Notes: a model not told the origin generated them from the letters alone. DNA of 64,000 bases from Escherichia coli (GCF_003018115.1 NZ_CP027457.1), one strand, 5' to 3'. Shown: positions 55,130 through 63,327, numbered from the stretch's first letter. Numbers and translations are program-made.

Positions 55130-55873
55130 TCACTTTTCCGATGCAACACAGCGGGAAGAATCAGTAATCTGTCGAACAATATCCCGGTGCTTGTTCAGCT
55201 CCCGCAGCGCGGCGCAGACTCGCTCCCACTTCTGGACATGATTTTTCGCCCGACGCAGTTCGCGATTTGCCATATGCAGCGATGGTAAAATCAGGTCATC
55301 CGCCCGCGTTTCGGTAAGCAATGACAACGACTGCTCAATGTCCGCCACAGTTTCTGTTTTAATTTCTTCCTGTATTGCATCCCCCTGTACTGGAACCGCA
55401 ACACCTGCTGGCTGAGGAAAGGCTTTACCATCCGTTTCCGCTGCGGATGCAGCTTCCGGCTCTGCCGGTAAATCAGCGCCAGGTATACAGTAACGAAATT
55501 TACCGCCCTGATTCGCGCGAATCAGACGACCTTTGCTGATTGCCATTGCCAGCGATGAATTCGCCCGGCGGGAGGTAATTCCGAACATCAATGCCAGTTC
55601 ATCCGCCGTTTGTGGGCCATGTAGTTCAATCGCCTCAATCAGCATTTGCGCGGTCACTTTCGGTACCGGTGACACTGGTTCACTTTCACCAGCCTGAGTC
55701 AGCCACCACATCGAACCCTTGTTATCCGCTTCACCACGGCGCTTCAGTTTCCACAGTTCGTTGACCGCATCTTCACGGCTGATTCCAAGGCGGGCCGCCA
55801 CTACCTGTGAAGAGGCTCTTTTCAGTGCTTTCAGTGCGTCAAATACGGTTTCCATTAAAATTTCCTCCGACAA
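55130..55873 (-). CDS. hypothetical protein
   Basis: 247-aa ORF between P-like gene and nin genes. Confidence 0.4.
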
Positions 55874-55888
55874 AATCGTTTCCCAGAT

Positions 55889-56350
55889 TCAAATAAAACC
55901 AGCAGCCTTCCGGCGTTCGTATTCCTGTTTCAGCCGTTCAATTGGCGTTGGCCCTTTCGGGTGTTTCGCCCCTTCCAGTTGTCGTCGCACTGGCGGAACA
56001 CTCATCCCGTTACCAACATGCTTTGCCCATTTCGTCAGTTGCCGTTCCGCAAGTCGTTTTAACTCACCCTGCGTCATCTGGCGCTCAATCCCTCTGGTAC
56101 GCATTTCGAGGCAGATGTGGTACAGCACAGGCTGTGGCCACGGGTATTTATCACTCCCGTCGTATCGCCAGGATTCATTGCGCCAGCGCCGGTACTCTTC
56201 CATCACGGCATCCACCGTAAGACCAAATGGATTTGCCCCACTCTCCGAAATCAGCGCAACAAACTCAGCCAGGTCCGGGGGCCACGTTTCACCCGCCCGG
56301 CAGCGGTCCATGCACTGACGACAGACCTGCCGGATTTGCTGTTCAGTCAT
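55889..56350 (-). CDS. replication protein P-like (helicase loader), start at internal Met
   Basis: 153 aa; C-terminal half resembles lambda P as I recall it; overlaps O-like stop by 8 nt. Confidence 0.55.
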   Translation of the reverse strand: MTEQQIRQVCRQCMDRCRAGETWPPDLAEFVALISESGANPFGLTVDAVMEEYRRWRNESWRYDGSDKYPWPQPVLYHICLEMRTRGIERQMTQGELKRLAERQLTKWAKHVGNGMSVPPVRRQLEGAKHPKGPTPIERLKQEYERRKAAGFI

Positions 56351-57380
56351 CGCACCAATCTGGGCAATCCAGAGCTTCGAAGGTGCGGCCCCGTTCTTCT
56401 GAGTCCAGCGGTTCGAATACACCTCCCCCATAAGCTCCCACAGCTTCCAGGCCGTTTCCGTTGCTGATAAATCCGTTTTCACGTTCCCACTGTTCGCGTG
56501 CTGCCCGGATTTCCTGAACTGCCCGTGATGCCGTGCCACCTGATGCTGCATGGCTTACCCCCTTGCTGACTGGTTTTACCTGTGCCCTGACGTGCTGCAC
56601 GTGACGGGCAAATTTCTGCTCCCACTGAACCTGCGTGAAAACCTTCCCCTCCGCCATCCAGTAATCCCGGAATGCGGCAAGCTCAGCAGGTGTAAATTCC
56701 GGCTCAGGCAGAGCCATACCCCACACTGCTGCCCGTTGTCGAAAATCCGGCGACGGCTGCCAGACAGTAGTCATCGAAAATTTCCCGATCGGTTCGCTCA
56801 GGCCGTCCAGGTATTCAGGTTCGGCTGTCTGCAACGGCGCACCATTCGACTCACTGGTCGGAATACTCTCGCGCGCGTTATGTGTGGGGTTTAATTCTGT
56901 ATCTGTATCTTTATCTGTCGTGACTTGTCGTGACAGATGCGTGACACGTCGTGACTCATCGTGACAATCAGCATTATGTTTCCGCAGCTTTTCCCGCTCC
57001 CGCTGCGCTCTCTTGCGCTCTGCCGGGGATTTTGCCGTTTGCGAAACGTTACCATTGTCCTCTTTCAGCACCTGACGTTTTTCCCATCCGGAAATAAGGT
57101 CACCATCCAGAACCCGCCCCTGCATTGCATGCAAAATTGAATCAATTACGTCTTCCGTCACATCAAGCGCACTTGCTAAATCTTCCGTCGTGACATCAAT
57201 GTGACCACGTAGTGACACGCCGTGACATGTCGTGACATTTCGTGACGCGCTCACCAGAAGGTGGATATACACTGCCATCACTGTTGCGATTGGCTGTCCT
57301 GAGACCCTGGCAATAGTTCGCCACTTGGGGTCATTTGGCATGTCATGCCACAATCTGAGCCAGGCATTAGCCATACTCAC
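56343..57380 (-). CDS. replication initiator O-like protein (ori iterons inside the gene)
   Basis: 345-aa ORF 5' of the P-like gene; two GTGAC iteron clusters within coding sequence. Confidence 0.55.
   Translation of the reverse strand: MSMANAWLRLWHDMPNDPKWRTIARVSGQPIATVMAVYIHLLVSASRNVTTCHGVSLRGHIDVTTEDLASALDVTEDVIDSILHAMQGRVLDGDLISGWEKRQVLKEDNGNVSQTAKSPAERKRAQREREKLRKHNADCHDESRRVTHLSRQVTTDKDTDTELNPTHNARESIPTSESNGAPLQTAEPEYLDGLSEPIGKFSMTTVWQPSPDFRQRAAVWGMALPEPEFTPAELAAFRDYWMAEGKVFTQVQWEQKFARHVQHVRAQVKPVSKGVSHAASGGTASRAVQEIRAAREQWERENGFISNGNGLEAVGAYGGGVFEPLDSEERGRTFEALDCPDWCDD
56913..56965. repeat. putative ori iteron cluster A (5 x cGTGACa at ~10-bp spacing)
   Basis: tcgtgacttgtcgtgacagatgcgtgacacgtcgtgactcatcgtgaca, preceded by atctgt x4. 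Confidence 0.6.
57189..57246. repeat. putative ori iteron cluster B (6 x GTGAC at ~10-bp spacing)
   Basis: gtgacatcaatgtgaccacgtagtgacacgccgtgacatgtcgtgacatttcgtgacg. Confidence 0.6.
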
Positions 57381-57442
57381 CTCTTCTGATACCGAACTTT
57401 ACCCACGAACTTCCGGAAGAAATCCGGTATAAATATTGTTGG

Positions 57443-57868
57443 TCAATGTACAACAACAGCATTACCAGGCTGACCACCACTGTTAGTCAGGGTGCCCCAG
57501 GCGATCGCTACAGCGACAAAATCATCCACATCTTTCACCAGCCGATCCCGTCGTTCGACGATCTCCCGGTAATATTCAGAACTGTGACTGCGCATACGGG
57601 CCACCAGCAAAGGCGGCATCGCCTTTTCGATCGCCGGTAACAGCGCCTGAATTTTTTCAACAGCATCAGGCGTATCCTTCTCCACCCAGCGGAAAATTTT
57701 CTGGGTATTACGGGCCAGGGCTTCCGGATGGCTGTCGTCGTACAGTTCCGGGAACGTCATCCCCAGTTCGAAATAAGTCCGGGCTATTTCAGCTGCGGGA
57801 ACTTTCTCACCGTCCGGATATGCCCAGGCATTCATCGCCATGCGGATGTGTTCATGTTTGATTTTCAT
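57443..57868 (-). CDS. YdaT-like (CII-position) regulatory protein
   Basis: 141 aa MKIKHEHIRMAMNAWAYPDGEK.. immediately 3' of the cro-like gene, as for ydaS-ydaT in Rac. Confidence 0.5.
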   Translation of the reverse strand: MKIKHEHIRMAMNAWAYPDGEKVPAAEIARTYFELGMTFPELYDDSHPEALARNTQKIFRWVEKDTPDAVEKIQALLPAIEKAMPPLLVARMRSHSSEYYREIVERRDRLVKDVDDFVAVAIAWGTLTNSGGQPGNAVVVH

Positions 57869-58092
57869 GAATCATTTTTCCTTTCGTTCGAGGTGTTATC
57901 CTTCTTTTTGTAAAGTTCTGGGTTCAACGATAGTTTTCCCTTGGAGTATGCAACTGCTTCAGCAGCCCTCCCCTTGGGAACTATTTCGCCGGGACGCTTA
58001 CGCCACATGTATATAGCTTCTCGGGTTACCCCATAAAAATCAGCGACTCTTTGGACAGAACCAAAAAACTGGACAAGTTCATCAACTCGCAT
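57865..58092 (-). CDS. cro: Cro-like (YdaS-family) HTH repressor
   Basis: 75 aa MRVDELVQFFGSVQRVADFYGVTREAIYMWRKR.., divergent from the cI-like gene. Confidence 0.7.
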   Translation of the reverse strand: MRVDELVQFFGSVQRVADFYGVTREAIYMWRKRPGEIVPKGRAAEAVAYSKGKLSLNPELYKKKDNTSNERKNDS

Positions 58093-58190
58093 TTCGCCCC
58101 CTTAAAACTAAGTATTTTTAGATTAAAGGGTAATTTTTTTTAGGTCAATACAATCTAAAATAATTTATATTCAATTCGCGGGAGAAAATA
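58093..58190. promoter_or_regulatory. immunity region with divergent promoters and operator half-sites
   Basis: 98-bp AT-rich spacer with inverted tatttttagatt / aatctaaaataat repeats. Confidence 0.6.
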
Positions 58191-58835
58191 ATGGAAAGCC
58201 TTGGCATTAGGCTTAAGAAACTCAGAAAAGACAAAGGGCTGACCCAAGTTGAACTTGGCAAGCTTTCTGGCGTAACTGGGGTAACAATAGGATACTGGGA
58301 GAAAGATCTAAACGAACCAGGTAGCAAAGCTCTTAGTAAATTAGCCCTAGCACTAGGCACTACTGAGTCCTATCTCCTGTATGGAGTATCATCACCTGAA
58401 TCATCCCTTGTGCAGAAAAATCCAGGTACCCAAATCCCATACCTTTCTTGGGGAGAAGCGATTTCTTTCCTAATATTAAAAGGAGAGAAAACTATGGGAA
58501 ATGTCGACAGGATCACCACATTCTTTGATGTCAAGGAGGGAGATTTTGCCGTTTCAATGCCTGATGATACTATGCACAATCCATCAGGGTCCCCAAGCAT
58601 TCCAGTTGGAGCCACAGTGATCATGAGGCCTGGCGAAAAATATAAAAATGGTAGCATCGTCGCTGTAATAGTCCCAGATCCACTCACAAACGAACCATCC
58701 ATGACTATAAAAAAATTAGTTATTGATGGAAAGCTCGTGTACTTAGCCCCCCTTAACCCACGCTATCAATCATCCTTACTTACACCGGAATGTAACATCG
58801 TTGCTGTAGCAAAAGGTGTTCAGTTCAGCCTCTAG
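58191..58835 (+). CDS. cI: CI-like prophage repressor (HTH + LexA-like S24 autopeptidase)
   Basis: 214 aa; HTH LTQVELGKLSGVTGVTIGYWEK; Ser (AVSMPDD) and Lys (TIKKLV) dyad. Confidence 0.85.
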   Translation: MESLGIRLKKLRKDKGLTQVELGKLSGVTGVTIGYWEKDLNEPGSKALSKLALALGTTESYLLYGVSSPESSLVQKNPGTQIPYLSWGEAISFLILKGEKTMGNVDRITTFFDVKEGDFAVSMPDDTMHNPSGSPSIPVGATVIMRPGEKYKNGSIVAVIVPDPLTNEPSMTIKKLVIDGKLVYLAPLNPRYQSSLLTPECNIVAVAKGVQFSL

Positions 58836-60855: not shown

Positions 60856-63327
60856 ATGAGTAAGGTCTTTATTTGCGCTGCTATTCCTGATGAACAGGCC
60901 ATAAAAGAAGATAGCGCTGTTGCGGTGGCCACTGCCATTGAAGCCGGTGATGAGCGTCGCGCACGCGCAAAATTTCATTGGCAATTTCTGGAGCAATTCC
61001 CTGCAGCTCAGGACTGCGCTTATAAATTTATTGTCTGTGAGGATAAACCCGGCATACCCCGCCCTGCCCTCGATTCCTGGGATGCTGAATATATGCAGGA
61101 AAACCGCTGGGATGAGGAGTCTGCTTCCTTTGTCCAGGTTGAGACTGAATCAGATCCGATGAACGTCACTTTTGACAAGCTGGCCCCTGAAGTACAGAAC
61201 GCTGTCATGGTTAAGTTCGACACATGTGAAAACATCACCGTTGATATGGTTATTAGCGCACAGGAATTGTTGCAGGAAGACATGGCAACATTCGACGGAC
61301 ATATCGTTGAAGCGTTGATGAAAATGCCAGAAGTTAACGCCATGTATCCGGAACTTAAGCTGCATGCCATCGGGTGGGTTAAGCATAAATGTAAGCCTGG
61401 TGCCAAATGGCCCGAAATTCAGGCAGAGATGCGCATCTGGAAAAAACGTCGCGAAGGTGAACGCAAGGAAACCGGAAAATACACGTCTGTTGTTGATCTC
61501 GCCCGCGCCAGAACCAATCAACAACACACTGAAAATTCAACAGGAAAAATCAGCCCGGTCATTGCTGCCATTCATCGCGAATACAAGCAGACATGGAAAA
61601 CACTGGATGACGAACTGGCCTACGCTCTCTGGCCTGGTGATGTGGATGCCGGAAACATTGACGGCAGCATCCATCGCTGGGCAAAAAATGAAGTTATCGA
61701 CAACGACCGCGAAGACTGGAAGCGTATCTCGGCATCAATGCGCAAACAGCCTGATGCCCTTCGCTACGACCGCCAGACTATTTTTGGCCTTGTCCGTGAA
61801 CGTCCGATCGACATTCACAAAGACCCTGTGGCACTGAACAAATACATTACTGAATACCTGACTACAAAGGGCGTGTTTGAAGATGAAGGAAGAAATCAGA
61901 GCGCAACTGATACTCTCTCGTCGCCAGTACCAGAAACTGATGCAGTGGAAACGGCAATTCCGGACAACGAAAAAACCGAATGCAAAGTGGAAGTCGAACC
62001 ATCTGTAGAGCGTGAGGGGCCGTTCTATTTCCTCTTCGCAGATAAGGACGGAGAAAAATACGGTCGCGCAAACAAACTTTCTGGTCTGGATAAGGCACTG
62101 GCTGCTGGCGCCACTGAAATCACAAAAGAAGAATATTTTGCCCGAAAAAATGGCACATACACGGGCTTACCGCAAAATGTAGATACCGCTGAAGATTCAG
62201 AACAACCAGAGCCGATAAAAGTTACCGCTGAAGAAGTAAACAAAATTATGCAGGCAGCCAATATCAGCCAGCCTGACGCTGATAAGTTGCTTGCTGCATC
62301 ACGTGGTGAATTTGTTGAAGGGATTAGTGACCCGAATGATCCGAAATGGGTTAAGGGGATCCAGACCCGCGATTCTGTGAACCAGAACCAGCATGAATCG
62401 GAACGGAACTACCAAAAAGCGGAACAAAACAGCCCAAATGCGTTACAAAACGAGCCAGAAACGAAACAGCCTGAACCAGTGGCGCAACAGGAAGTGGAAA
62501 AAGTCTGCACCGCCTGCGGTCAGACCGGCGGCGGCAACTGCCCTGATTGTGGTGCGGTGATGGGCGACGCAACATACCAGGAAACATTCGATGAAGAGTA
62601 TCAGGTTGAAGTTCAGGAAGATGATCCGGAGGAAATGGAAGGCGCTGAACATCCACACAAGGAGAACACTGGCGGCAATCAGCATCACGATAGCGATAAT
62701 GAAACTGGCGAGACGGCAGATCACTCAATTAAGGTGAACGGTCATCAAGAAATCACATCCACCAGCAGGACGTGTGACCATCTAATGATCGACCTTGAAA
62801 CCATGGGAAAAAATCCTGATGCCCCGATCATCTCAATAGGTGCAATATTTTTCGATCCGCAAACCGGAGATATGGGACCGGAATTTAGTAAGACTATCGA
62901 TCTGGAAACTGCTGGCGGGGTCATTGATCGGGACACCATTAAATGGTGGCTTAAGCAATCACGCGAAGCGCAATCTGCCATTATGACCGATGAAATCCCG
63001 TTAGATGATGCACTGTTACAATTGCGGGAATTTATCGACGAAAACTCCGGTGAATTTTTTGTTCAGGTCTGGGGAAATGGAGCCAACTTCGACAACACGA
63101 TTTTGCGCCGTTCATACGAACGGCAGGGGATCCCCTGCCCGTGGCGTTACTACAACGATCGCGATGTACGCACAATCGTTGAGCTGGGGAAAGCCATAGA
63201 CTTCGATGCCAGAACGGCTATTCCATTCGAAGGTGAGCGCCATAATGCACTTGATGACGCCCGTTACCAGGCAAAATACGTTTCAGTTATCTGGCAAAAA
63301 CTGATCCCGAGTCAGGCTGATTTTTAA
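60856..63327 (+). CDS. large early-left protein with C-terminal DnaQ-like (DEDDh) 3'-5' exonuclease domain
   Basis: 823 aa; C-terminal ..MIDLETMGK..WGNGANFDNTIL..HNALDDARYQ..; acidic linker; Zn-ribbon CTACGQTGGGNCPDCG. Confidence 0.6.
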   Translation: MSKVFICAAIPDEQAIKEDSAVAVATAIEAGDERRARAKFHWQFLEQFPAAQDCAYKFIVCEDKPGIPRPALDSWDAEYMQENRWDEESASFVQVETESDPMNVTFDKLAPEVQNAVMVKFDTCENITVDMVISAQELLQEDMATFDGHIVEALMKMPEVNAMYPELKLHAIGWVKHKCKPGAKWPEIQAEMRIWKKRREGERKETGKYTSVVDLARARTNQQHTENSTGKISPVIAAIHREYKQTWKTLDDELAYALWPGDVDAGNIDGSIHRWAKNEVIDNDREDWKRISASMRKQPDALRYDRQTIFGLVRERPIDIHKDPVALNKYITEYLTTKGVFEDEGRNQSATDTLSSPVPETDAVETAIPDNEKTECKVEVEPSVEREGPFYFLFADKDGEKYGRANKLSGLDKALAAGATEITKEEYFARKNGTYTGLPQNVDTAEDSEQPEPIKVTAEEVNKIMQAANISQPDADKLLAASRGEFVEGISDPNDPKWVKGIQTRDSVNQNQHESERNYQKAEQNSPNALQNEPETKQPEPVAQQEVEKVCTACGQTGGGNCPDCGAVMGDATYQETFDEEYQVEVQEDDPEEMEGAEHPHKENTGGNQHHDSDNETGETADHSIKVNGHQEITSTSRTCDHLMIDLETMGKNPDAPIISIGAIFFDPQTGDMGPEFSKTIDLETAGGVIDRDTIKWWLKQSREAQSAIMTDEIPLDDALLQLREFIDENSGEFFVQVWGNGANFDNTILRRSYERQGIPCPWRYYNDRDVRTIVELGKAIDFDARTAIPFEGERHNALDDARYQAKYVSVIWQKLIPSQADF

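Follow-up and report, generated by a model that had tools for sequence, protein, structure and literature searches.

Two co-varying arrays of short direct repeats within the replication initiator gene of an Escherichia coli prophage

Introduction

In bacteriophage lambda, the replication origin lies in the middle of gene O, where a block of iterons is followed by an AT-rich tract (PMC7466680). The gp38 protein of SPP1 binds repeats beside an unwinding element inside its own gene, gene 38, at oriL (PMC5737612). In the plasmid pSK41, the Rep boxes are located centrally in rep, the linker encoded there is dispensable and the C-terminal domain of Rep recruits host replication proteins; the N-terminal domain of the protein also mediates oligomerization (PMC5703833). 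Here we describe a locus on a 64 kb stretch of Escherichia coli DNA (NZ_CP027457.1; the whole stretch is referred to as the window), in which the replication initiator gene of a lambdoid prophage (56343..57374, minus strand) contains two arrays of short direct repeats. We call the start-proximal array, with six cores, array A and the distal array, with five cores, array B. Judged from its sequence, the layout of the locus is of a known kind, an iteron origin embedded in an initiator gene. What appears to be new is a conserved and co-evolving second array within the DNA that codes for the DNA-binding domain, 229 bp from the proposed core origin.

As at lambda ori (PMC7466680), the proposed origin lies in the linker-coding DNA of the initiator gene, the repeats precede an AT-rich tract and a P-family helicase-loader gene is found downstream. 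As in lambda and the Shiga toxin (Stx) phages (PMC7466680), the N-terminal domain and its repeats appear to travel as one specificity module. Unlike in lambda, the initiator falls outside the lambda O family and the repeats are direct repeats of 10–11 bp with a 7-bp core, rather than 19-bp dyad iterons. Lambda and the Stx phages have a single block of 4 or 6 iterons, whereas the locus described here has its second array upstream of the first block, in the region coding for the DNA-binding domain. With SPP1 gp38, the initiator shares the lack of an AAA+ domain and the placement of direct repeats and a candidate unwinding element within its own gene. SPP1 also has a second site for the same protein, oriR, for which a non-initiating role has been proposed (PMC5737612, PMC6316719). 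That site, however, is intergenic, lies ∼13 kb off and has an AT-rich element of its own, whereas array A is close by, within coding sequence and without such an element. As in pSK41 Rep, of the RepA_N type, the putative binding boxes are placed centrally in the gene of the protein that would bind them, in DNA coding for a linker; pSK41 differs in being a Gram-positive plasmid with a single block of boxes, and a relationship at the sequence level was not detected.

Pairs of arrays are also known from other replicons. In P4, the initiator has its sites in two separate arrays, ori and crr, both of which are needed, and in P1, incC and incA are two arrays of the same initiator site, one of which is a control locus. 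The sites of RctB on chromosome 2 of Vibrio cholerae are 11–12-mers spaced one helical turn apart (PMC3401445). Unlike the present case, the arrays of P4, P1 and RctB are intergenic or kilobases apart and are concerned with plasmid or chromosome copy control, and the proteins are unrelated, so that the comparison is one of analogy only.

Results

Two arrays of direct repeats at helical spacing lie inside the initiator gene

The initial annotation of the window had reported clusters of five and six GTGAC repeats at ∼10-bp spacing inside this gene. Both clusters were recovered, with a spacing of 10–11 bp and starts that are 270 bp apart. On the plus strand, GTGAC begins at positions 56920, 56930, 56941, 56951 and 56961 in array B (steps of 10, 11, 10 and 10) and at positions 57190, 57201, 57212, 57222, 57232 and 57242 in array A (steps of 11, 11, 10, 10 and 10), and all 11 copies share one orientation. 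Read in the sense of the gene, array A (57189..57246, minus strand) consists of six direct GTCAC(G) cores at gene nucleotides 129, 139, 149, 159, 170 and 181 (codons 43–62), and array B (56919..56965, minus strand) of five direct GTCACG cores at nucleotides 410, 420, 430, 441 and 451 (codons 137–152), the last core of A being 229 bp from the first of B. Each repeat consists of a 7-bp core, tGTCACG, and a variable spacer of 3–5 nt behind it. The clusters had been called iterons; they are periodic, but their units are short and direct, spaced by one turn of the helix, and are not dyad iterons of 19 bp.

The two arrays account for a sixth of the GTGAC copies in the window (11 of 67), and by a Poisson estimate ∼1e-4 spans of 46 nt with at least five copies would be expected in the whole window. 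Periodic 5-mer runs in 2000 shuffled versions of the initiator gene reached 3 at most, compared with the observed runs of 6 and 5. Tandem Repeats Finder independently returned period-10 arrays at 56917–56966 and 57212–57246, together with a period-6 array at 56896–56918. No further helically spaced array of GTGAC or GTCAC was found in the window, where only a single isolated pair occurs, and a third array resembling the oriR site of SPP1 was sought across the same 64 kb and not found. Since the units are 10–11 nt long, the core is encoded in all three reading frames (as the dipeptides VT, CH and SR), and a protein repeat therefore cannot account for the arrays.

Array B is nearly universal and array A is found in part of the family

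For comparison, 98 distinct relatives were collected by tblastn of phage genomes and by two scans of viral contigs. The first scan gave close E. coli relatives only, and the second used a Ralstonia-type sequence as the first alignment row. From each scan 80 loci were kept; the contigs carry no taxonomy, and the independence of lineages was judged by a neighbour-joining tree.

Array B was found in 95 of the 98 relatives, at gene nucleotides 345–525, with the same 10–11 nt spacing and with a tract rich in AT and purines behind it. The other three, L009, L010 and L011, are distant relatives without a detected periodic run, and array B is present wherever an array could be detected. Periodic repeats, whose absence from relatives the initial annotation had named as evidence against its view, were present down to 38% protein identity. 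Array A (gene nucleotides 115–305) is carried by part of the relatives, namely the E. coli clade (4–6 copies), Aeromonas pAEv1818, the Pseudomonas phages Marin, phi1 and PACT201, the Ralstonia phages Hennie and Firinga, and many metagenomic contigs. Copies in A and B number 4 + 5 in Escherichia phage Evi, 4 + 3 in pAEv1818, 4 + 4 in both Marin and phi1 and 5 + 4 in Hennie, and E. coli prophages have 4–6 cores in array B as well as in array A.

In relatives with array B only, no second array was found within 1.5 kb of the gene, except in one contig, L155. There, three GTCACG copies at 10-bp spacing (L155:1456–1481) lie at the end of the upstream open reading frame (ORF), just before the initiator gene's Shine–Dalgarno sequence and ATG, placed as an operator might be. 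In another contig, L124 (gene nucleotides 140–310), and also in L112 and L129, array A has grown to 8–12 or more cores, and the protein loop encoded there is longer by tens of residues. Many of these cores take the form of the 10-bp palindrome GTGACGTCAC. The core at nucleotide 161 lies within a palindrome in the Ralstonia, GTGAC and GAAAC clades (GCAACGTTGC, GTGACGTCAC, GAAACGTTTC).

The cores of both arrays change together and show signs of selection on the DNA

Five types of core occur among the relatives (GTCACG, GCAACG, GTGACG, GTAACG and GAAACG). In every lineage with both arrays the core of A is the same as the core of B and the spacers differ, so the match does not stem from recent copying. 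Wobble positions within A cores are invariant within clades in 23 of 29 cases, compared with 143 of 538 elsewhere in the same alignments (Fisher p = 1.4e-8), and those within B cores in 17 of 23 cases (p = 5e-6), in tests that pool the positions and treat sites as independent. In a set of 80 close relatives from E. coli, variation affects the spacers, is rare in the B cores and is absent from the A cores. Copy number shifts by whole units, as can be seen from a 21-bp, two-unit, in-frame indel in array A that distinguishes the window from phage Evi.

One of the A cores overlaps the codons of an invariant Arg56–Gly57 pair. In lineages with both arrays, the Gly57 codon and the codon after it read GGT CAC (His) where the core is GTCAC, GGC AAC (Asn) where it is GCAAC, GGT GAC (Asp) where it is GTGAC and GGA AAC where it is GAAAC. 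In lineages that have the same B cores and lack array A, the residue after Gly57 can be L, V, A, Q, T, S or others. The residue thus tracks the core wherever both arrays are present and is free where only B is present, so it is the motif in the DNA that sets the protein sequence here, rather than the other way round. The same freedom led us to reject this residue as a determinant of binding specificity. We regard the site as a clear case of a DNA element overriding protein sequence, in that the motif fixes both the wobble base of a glycine codon and the residue that follows. Taken together, the comparisons across lineages indicate that both arrays are conserved, switch core type jointly and experience selection on the DNA itself. 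A search of positions 55800–58300 against Rfam gave no match.

An AT-rich tract adjoins array B

Directly next to array B lies an AT-rich tract that is purine-rich on the coding strand (56889..56918, minus strand; ACAGATAAAGATACAGATACAGAATTAAAC in gene sense) and that we propose as the DNA-unwinding element. Most of it is made up of a run of hexamers at 56895–56918. A run of four atctgt copies had been noted here; two of the hexamers are exact and two carry one mismatch (TTCTGT, ATCTGT, ATCTTT and ATCTGT, corresponding to GATACA/GATAAA in the sense of the gene). Of all 30-mers in the gene, the one at 56889–56919, which touches array B, has the lowest stability, with −33.6 kcal/mol compared with a mean of −43.1 (standard deviation 3.6). 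In 15 lineages with both arrays, the 40 nt after array B have an AT fraction of 0.61 and a purine fraction of 0.72, against gene means of 0.41 and 0.56; the corresponding values for the 40 nt after array A are 0.45 and 0.53.

The hexamer run also marks a mosaic junction (56896–56916). The first ∼485 nt of the initiator gene, both arrays included, match Escherichia phage Evi and relatives of that phage at 84–86% identity, and in these the C-terminal half differs; the last ∼570 nt are ∼86–88% identical to ydaU of phage Rac-SA53, in which the N-terminal half differs. The megablast matches of the two halves overlap in the hexamer run alone, and the run may be a recombination hotspot for the exchange of specificity modules. 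Its copy number ranges from ∼3 to >7 among near-identical E. coli prophages (viral contigs L013–L092, gene nucleotides 457–520). The ydaU gene of Rac-SA53 (L002:2516–3586) has the C-terminal half and the hexamer run in common with the window, has an unrelated N-terminal half and contains no GTCAC arrays; a few copies of TGTTCAA/TTGAACA upstream of its hexamer run are possibly iterons of its own.

The initiator combines a winged helix with a DnaT-like domain

The initiator is predicted to be a protein of 343 residues with an N-terminal winged helix, a disordered linker and a DnaT-like C-terminal domain. Its ORF begins, taken mechanically, at a GTG at 57380. The ATG at 57374 is the more likely start codon: a GAGG lies 5 nt 5′ of it and the relatives begin at this position, with MANAW or MSNSW. 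The N-terminal winged-helix domain (residues ∼9–100; 57075..57350, minus strand) is presumed to bind the iterons, and the DNA that encodes it includes array A. Its match to TIGR01714, the N-terminal region of phage replisome organizers, stays under threshold, and its fold is akin to those of the DnaD N-terminal domain (NTD) and the staphylococcal RepA-NTD. When the family profile was searched against the sequences of solved structures, nothing relevant was returned. The C-terminal part contains a DnaT single-stranded DNA-binding domain (residues 199–265; 56580..56780, minus strand); against the full-length DnaT model (NCBIfam NF002770) the protein scores 94.4 bits with a cut-off of 201, and the match is confined to residues 194–269.

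In an AlphaFold2 (AF2) model built from an alignment of 99 sequences, the N-terminal domain (residues 9–100) and the DnaT-like domain are predicted with confidence and the linker at residues 136–195 is disordered, with a predicted local distance difference test score (pLDDT) of <50. The codons of array A correspond to a hairpin or loop between the helices at residues 29–45 and 63–70 (pLDDT ∼72), and this loop differs in length among homologues. Array B and the hexamer run encode the beginning of the disordered linker.

The gene had been described as O-like. It does belong to a lambdoid replication module with genes for CI, Cro, a YdaT-like protein, the initiator and a P-family protein, and it is O-like by position only. 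Neither the window protein nor any of the 99 relatives in the alignment matched the Pfam lambda O family at E ≤ 0.01, and a lambda O homologue was rejected as an identification in view of this result and of the winged helix, which resembles DnaD-NTD and RepA-NTD, joined to a DnaT-like C-terminal domain. Within the 99-sequence alignment the N-terminal domain is joined to varied C-terminal domains, DnaT-like in 16 members and Phg_2220_C (PF09524, the family of SPP1 gp38 and a further likeness to that protein) in two; the C-terminal part of the remaining members has no Pfam match. The label 'DnaT-like protein' masks a replication initiator with an embedded putative origin.

The prophage setting

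The window is E. coli chromosomal DNA with a lambdoid prophage, and several Shiga-toxin-producing strains carry identical DNA. The minus-strand genes are, in order, Cro (PF14549), a YdaT-family protein at the position of cII, the initiator, the PF06992 gene and a DUF1627 gene, and a gene for a CI/LexA-like repressor is divergent from this replication module. The helicase-loader gene downstream of the initiator (55889..56349, minus strand) belongs to the lambda P family (Pfam Phage_lambda_P PF06992, 59.7 bits). Its start overlaps the TGA stop codon of the initiator gene in an ATGA (56343–56349), which suggests translational coupling of the two genes. The listed ORF of 220 residues is too long for this gene, and ∼153 residues are likely. 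A homologous arrangement of an initiator gene next to a P-family gene is seen in ydaU/ydaV of Rac-SA53, and across the family the downstream partner varies between a P-family loader, a DnaB-type helicase and a primase-helicase. The YdaT_toxin-family protein (PF06254; 57443–57868, minus strand) lies between cro and the initiator gene, where lambda has cII, and the Aeromonas and Pseudomonas relatives, like Rac-SA53, have a YdaT-type protein in the same place. An ORF of 823 residues (60856–63327, plus strand) is found past the immunity region.

Discussion

We propose, with a probability of about 0.6 on the strength of the sequence comparisons, that the core origin consists of array B with the tract beside it and that array A is an accessory array of the same initiator, acting in cis. 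Array B is the likely origin array because it alone has an AT-rich, easily melted neighbour and because it is nearly universal in the family. The earlier suggestion of either a bipartite origin or one origin plus an autoregulatory site agrees with this result as far as one origin plus a second site is concerned, given that the tract is found at B only and B is near-universal.

In the mechanism that we envisage, the N-terminal winged-helix domain of the initiator would bind both arrays, with one subunit on each 7-bp core. With cores one helical turn apart, the bound subunits would be aligned on one face of the DNA. Filling of array B by the initiator would melt the adjacent AT- and purine-rich tract, and the DnaT-like C-terminal domain, together with the downstream P-family loader, would bring in the host helicase. 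Array A, upstream of B, would bind the same initiator and bridge or loop the DNA into a larger origin complex. Array A probably acts through protein–protein bridging or looping to array B. Bridging between A and B is made plausible, by analogy, by the tetramer seen in a solved structure of DnaD-NTD (PDB 8ojj) and by the oligomerization of the N-terminal domain of pSK41 Rep. We infer the identity of the binder, the looping between the arrays and the sign of the effect of array A. The more specific proposal, that array A is an architectural or regulatory element of the origin, placed in the initiator's own DNA-binding-domain coding sequence and bridging to B, is put forward tentatively and at well below even odds.

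Several points weigh against an accessory role for array A at an origin in array B. Array A is absent from the large Cy-LDV1-like clade and from ctOK67, L009 and L010, so it is not required for origin function in this family. As both arrays lie in the DNA that codes for the N-terminal domain, their covariation with that domain is inseparable from physical linkage. Helical phasing between A and B, expected if the DNA is looped tightly, is only suggestive: seven of 10 configurations lie within 0.13 turn at 10.4 bp per turn, and a circular-statistics test over the 10 gave p ∼0.07–0.09 and is sensitive to the helical repeat assumed, so we have dropped phasing as a claim. Finally, no binding or replication data for members of the family were found in the searchable literature.

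The strongest alternative is that array A is a brake or regulatory site, working as an autoregulatory roadblock on pR-like transcription, through handcuffing with array B, or as a fork barrier; in the last form it would stop the fork that runs against early transcription, making replication unidirectional and favouring a theta-to-sigma switch. The position of array A, 129 nt into the gene and upstream of B along the direction of transcription, would suit such a function, as would its dispensability in whole clades and the plasticity of its copy number, from 3 to >12. The operator-like GTCACG triplet before the ribosome-binding site of the initiator gene in L155 points the same way, and SPP1 gp38 bound at oriR has been proposed to stall forks and trigger concatemeric replication (PMC6316719). 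Against a brake, promoter-like elements overlapping array A are not beyond chance: a scan for promoters and terminators gave counts no higher than in shuffled sequences, with one weak promoter-like match over array B and none over A. Copy-number control is also less obviously needed in a family that is phage-borne and not a plasmid replicon. In a plasmid collection the initiator gave 11 matches, mostly on very large or chromosome-sized records, so it is probably not used as a plasmid replicon. On balance we consider a brake possible rather than probable.

It is highly improbable that the arrays lack a function as DNA and arose through a protein repeat or replication slippage, or that they are read by another factor or at the RNA level. 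Slippage does occur, as the two-unit indel between the window and Evi shows. However, the spacing of 10–11 nt rotates the reading frame and equals the helical repeat of DNA, the wobble positions of the cores are conserved, the cores of A and B shift together across five types, and the residue after Gly57 is free wherever array A is missing. Against another binder, the neighbouring genes differ between clades, which leaves the initiator as the sole constant partner, and the lack of a match to an Rfam family speaks against an RNA element. The least probable of the readings is that array A is an origin in its own right, independent of B. Its cores, of the same type, equal or outnumber those of B, and SPP1 has been described with two gp38-binding origins (PMC6316719), but array A has no AT-rich or low-stability tract beside it in the 15 lineages and is absent from many relatives that keep array B.

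Full-text searches, in literature that includes few subscription journals, did not turn up an account of paired arrays in initiators of this family, and no mapped origin for this type of initiator was found in the searchable literature. A paper on the Stx replication region does not mention repeats or origins (PMC8044961).

This type of initiator is common. The N-terminal domain gave at least 583 confirmed matches in one viral-contig scan, and of 5426 complete E. coli genomes, 3906 contain prophages that match parts of the replication module around the gene; many of these genomes are from Shiga-toxin-producing strains. The comparative data predict the bases of the binding core, the melting tract and the dispensable array, and a simple replicon of the lambda-dv kind would offer a tractable system for asking whether a second initiator array is an enhancer, a brake or a direction-setter. 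If the accessory role proposed for array A is correct, array A co-evolves with the DNA-binding domain and the core origin as one portable specificity cassette. A bridge between A and B would then boost firing, or set the direction of replication by blocking the fork that opposes early transcription, and the locus would represent a short-range, intragenic counterpart of SPP1 oriR or P4 crr that is widespread in temperate phages of Proteobacteria.
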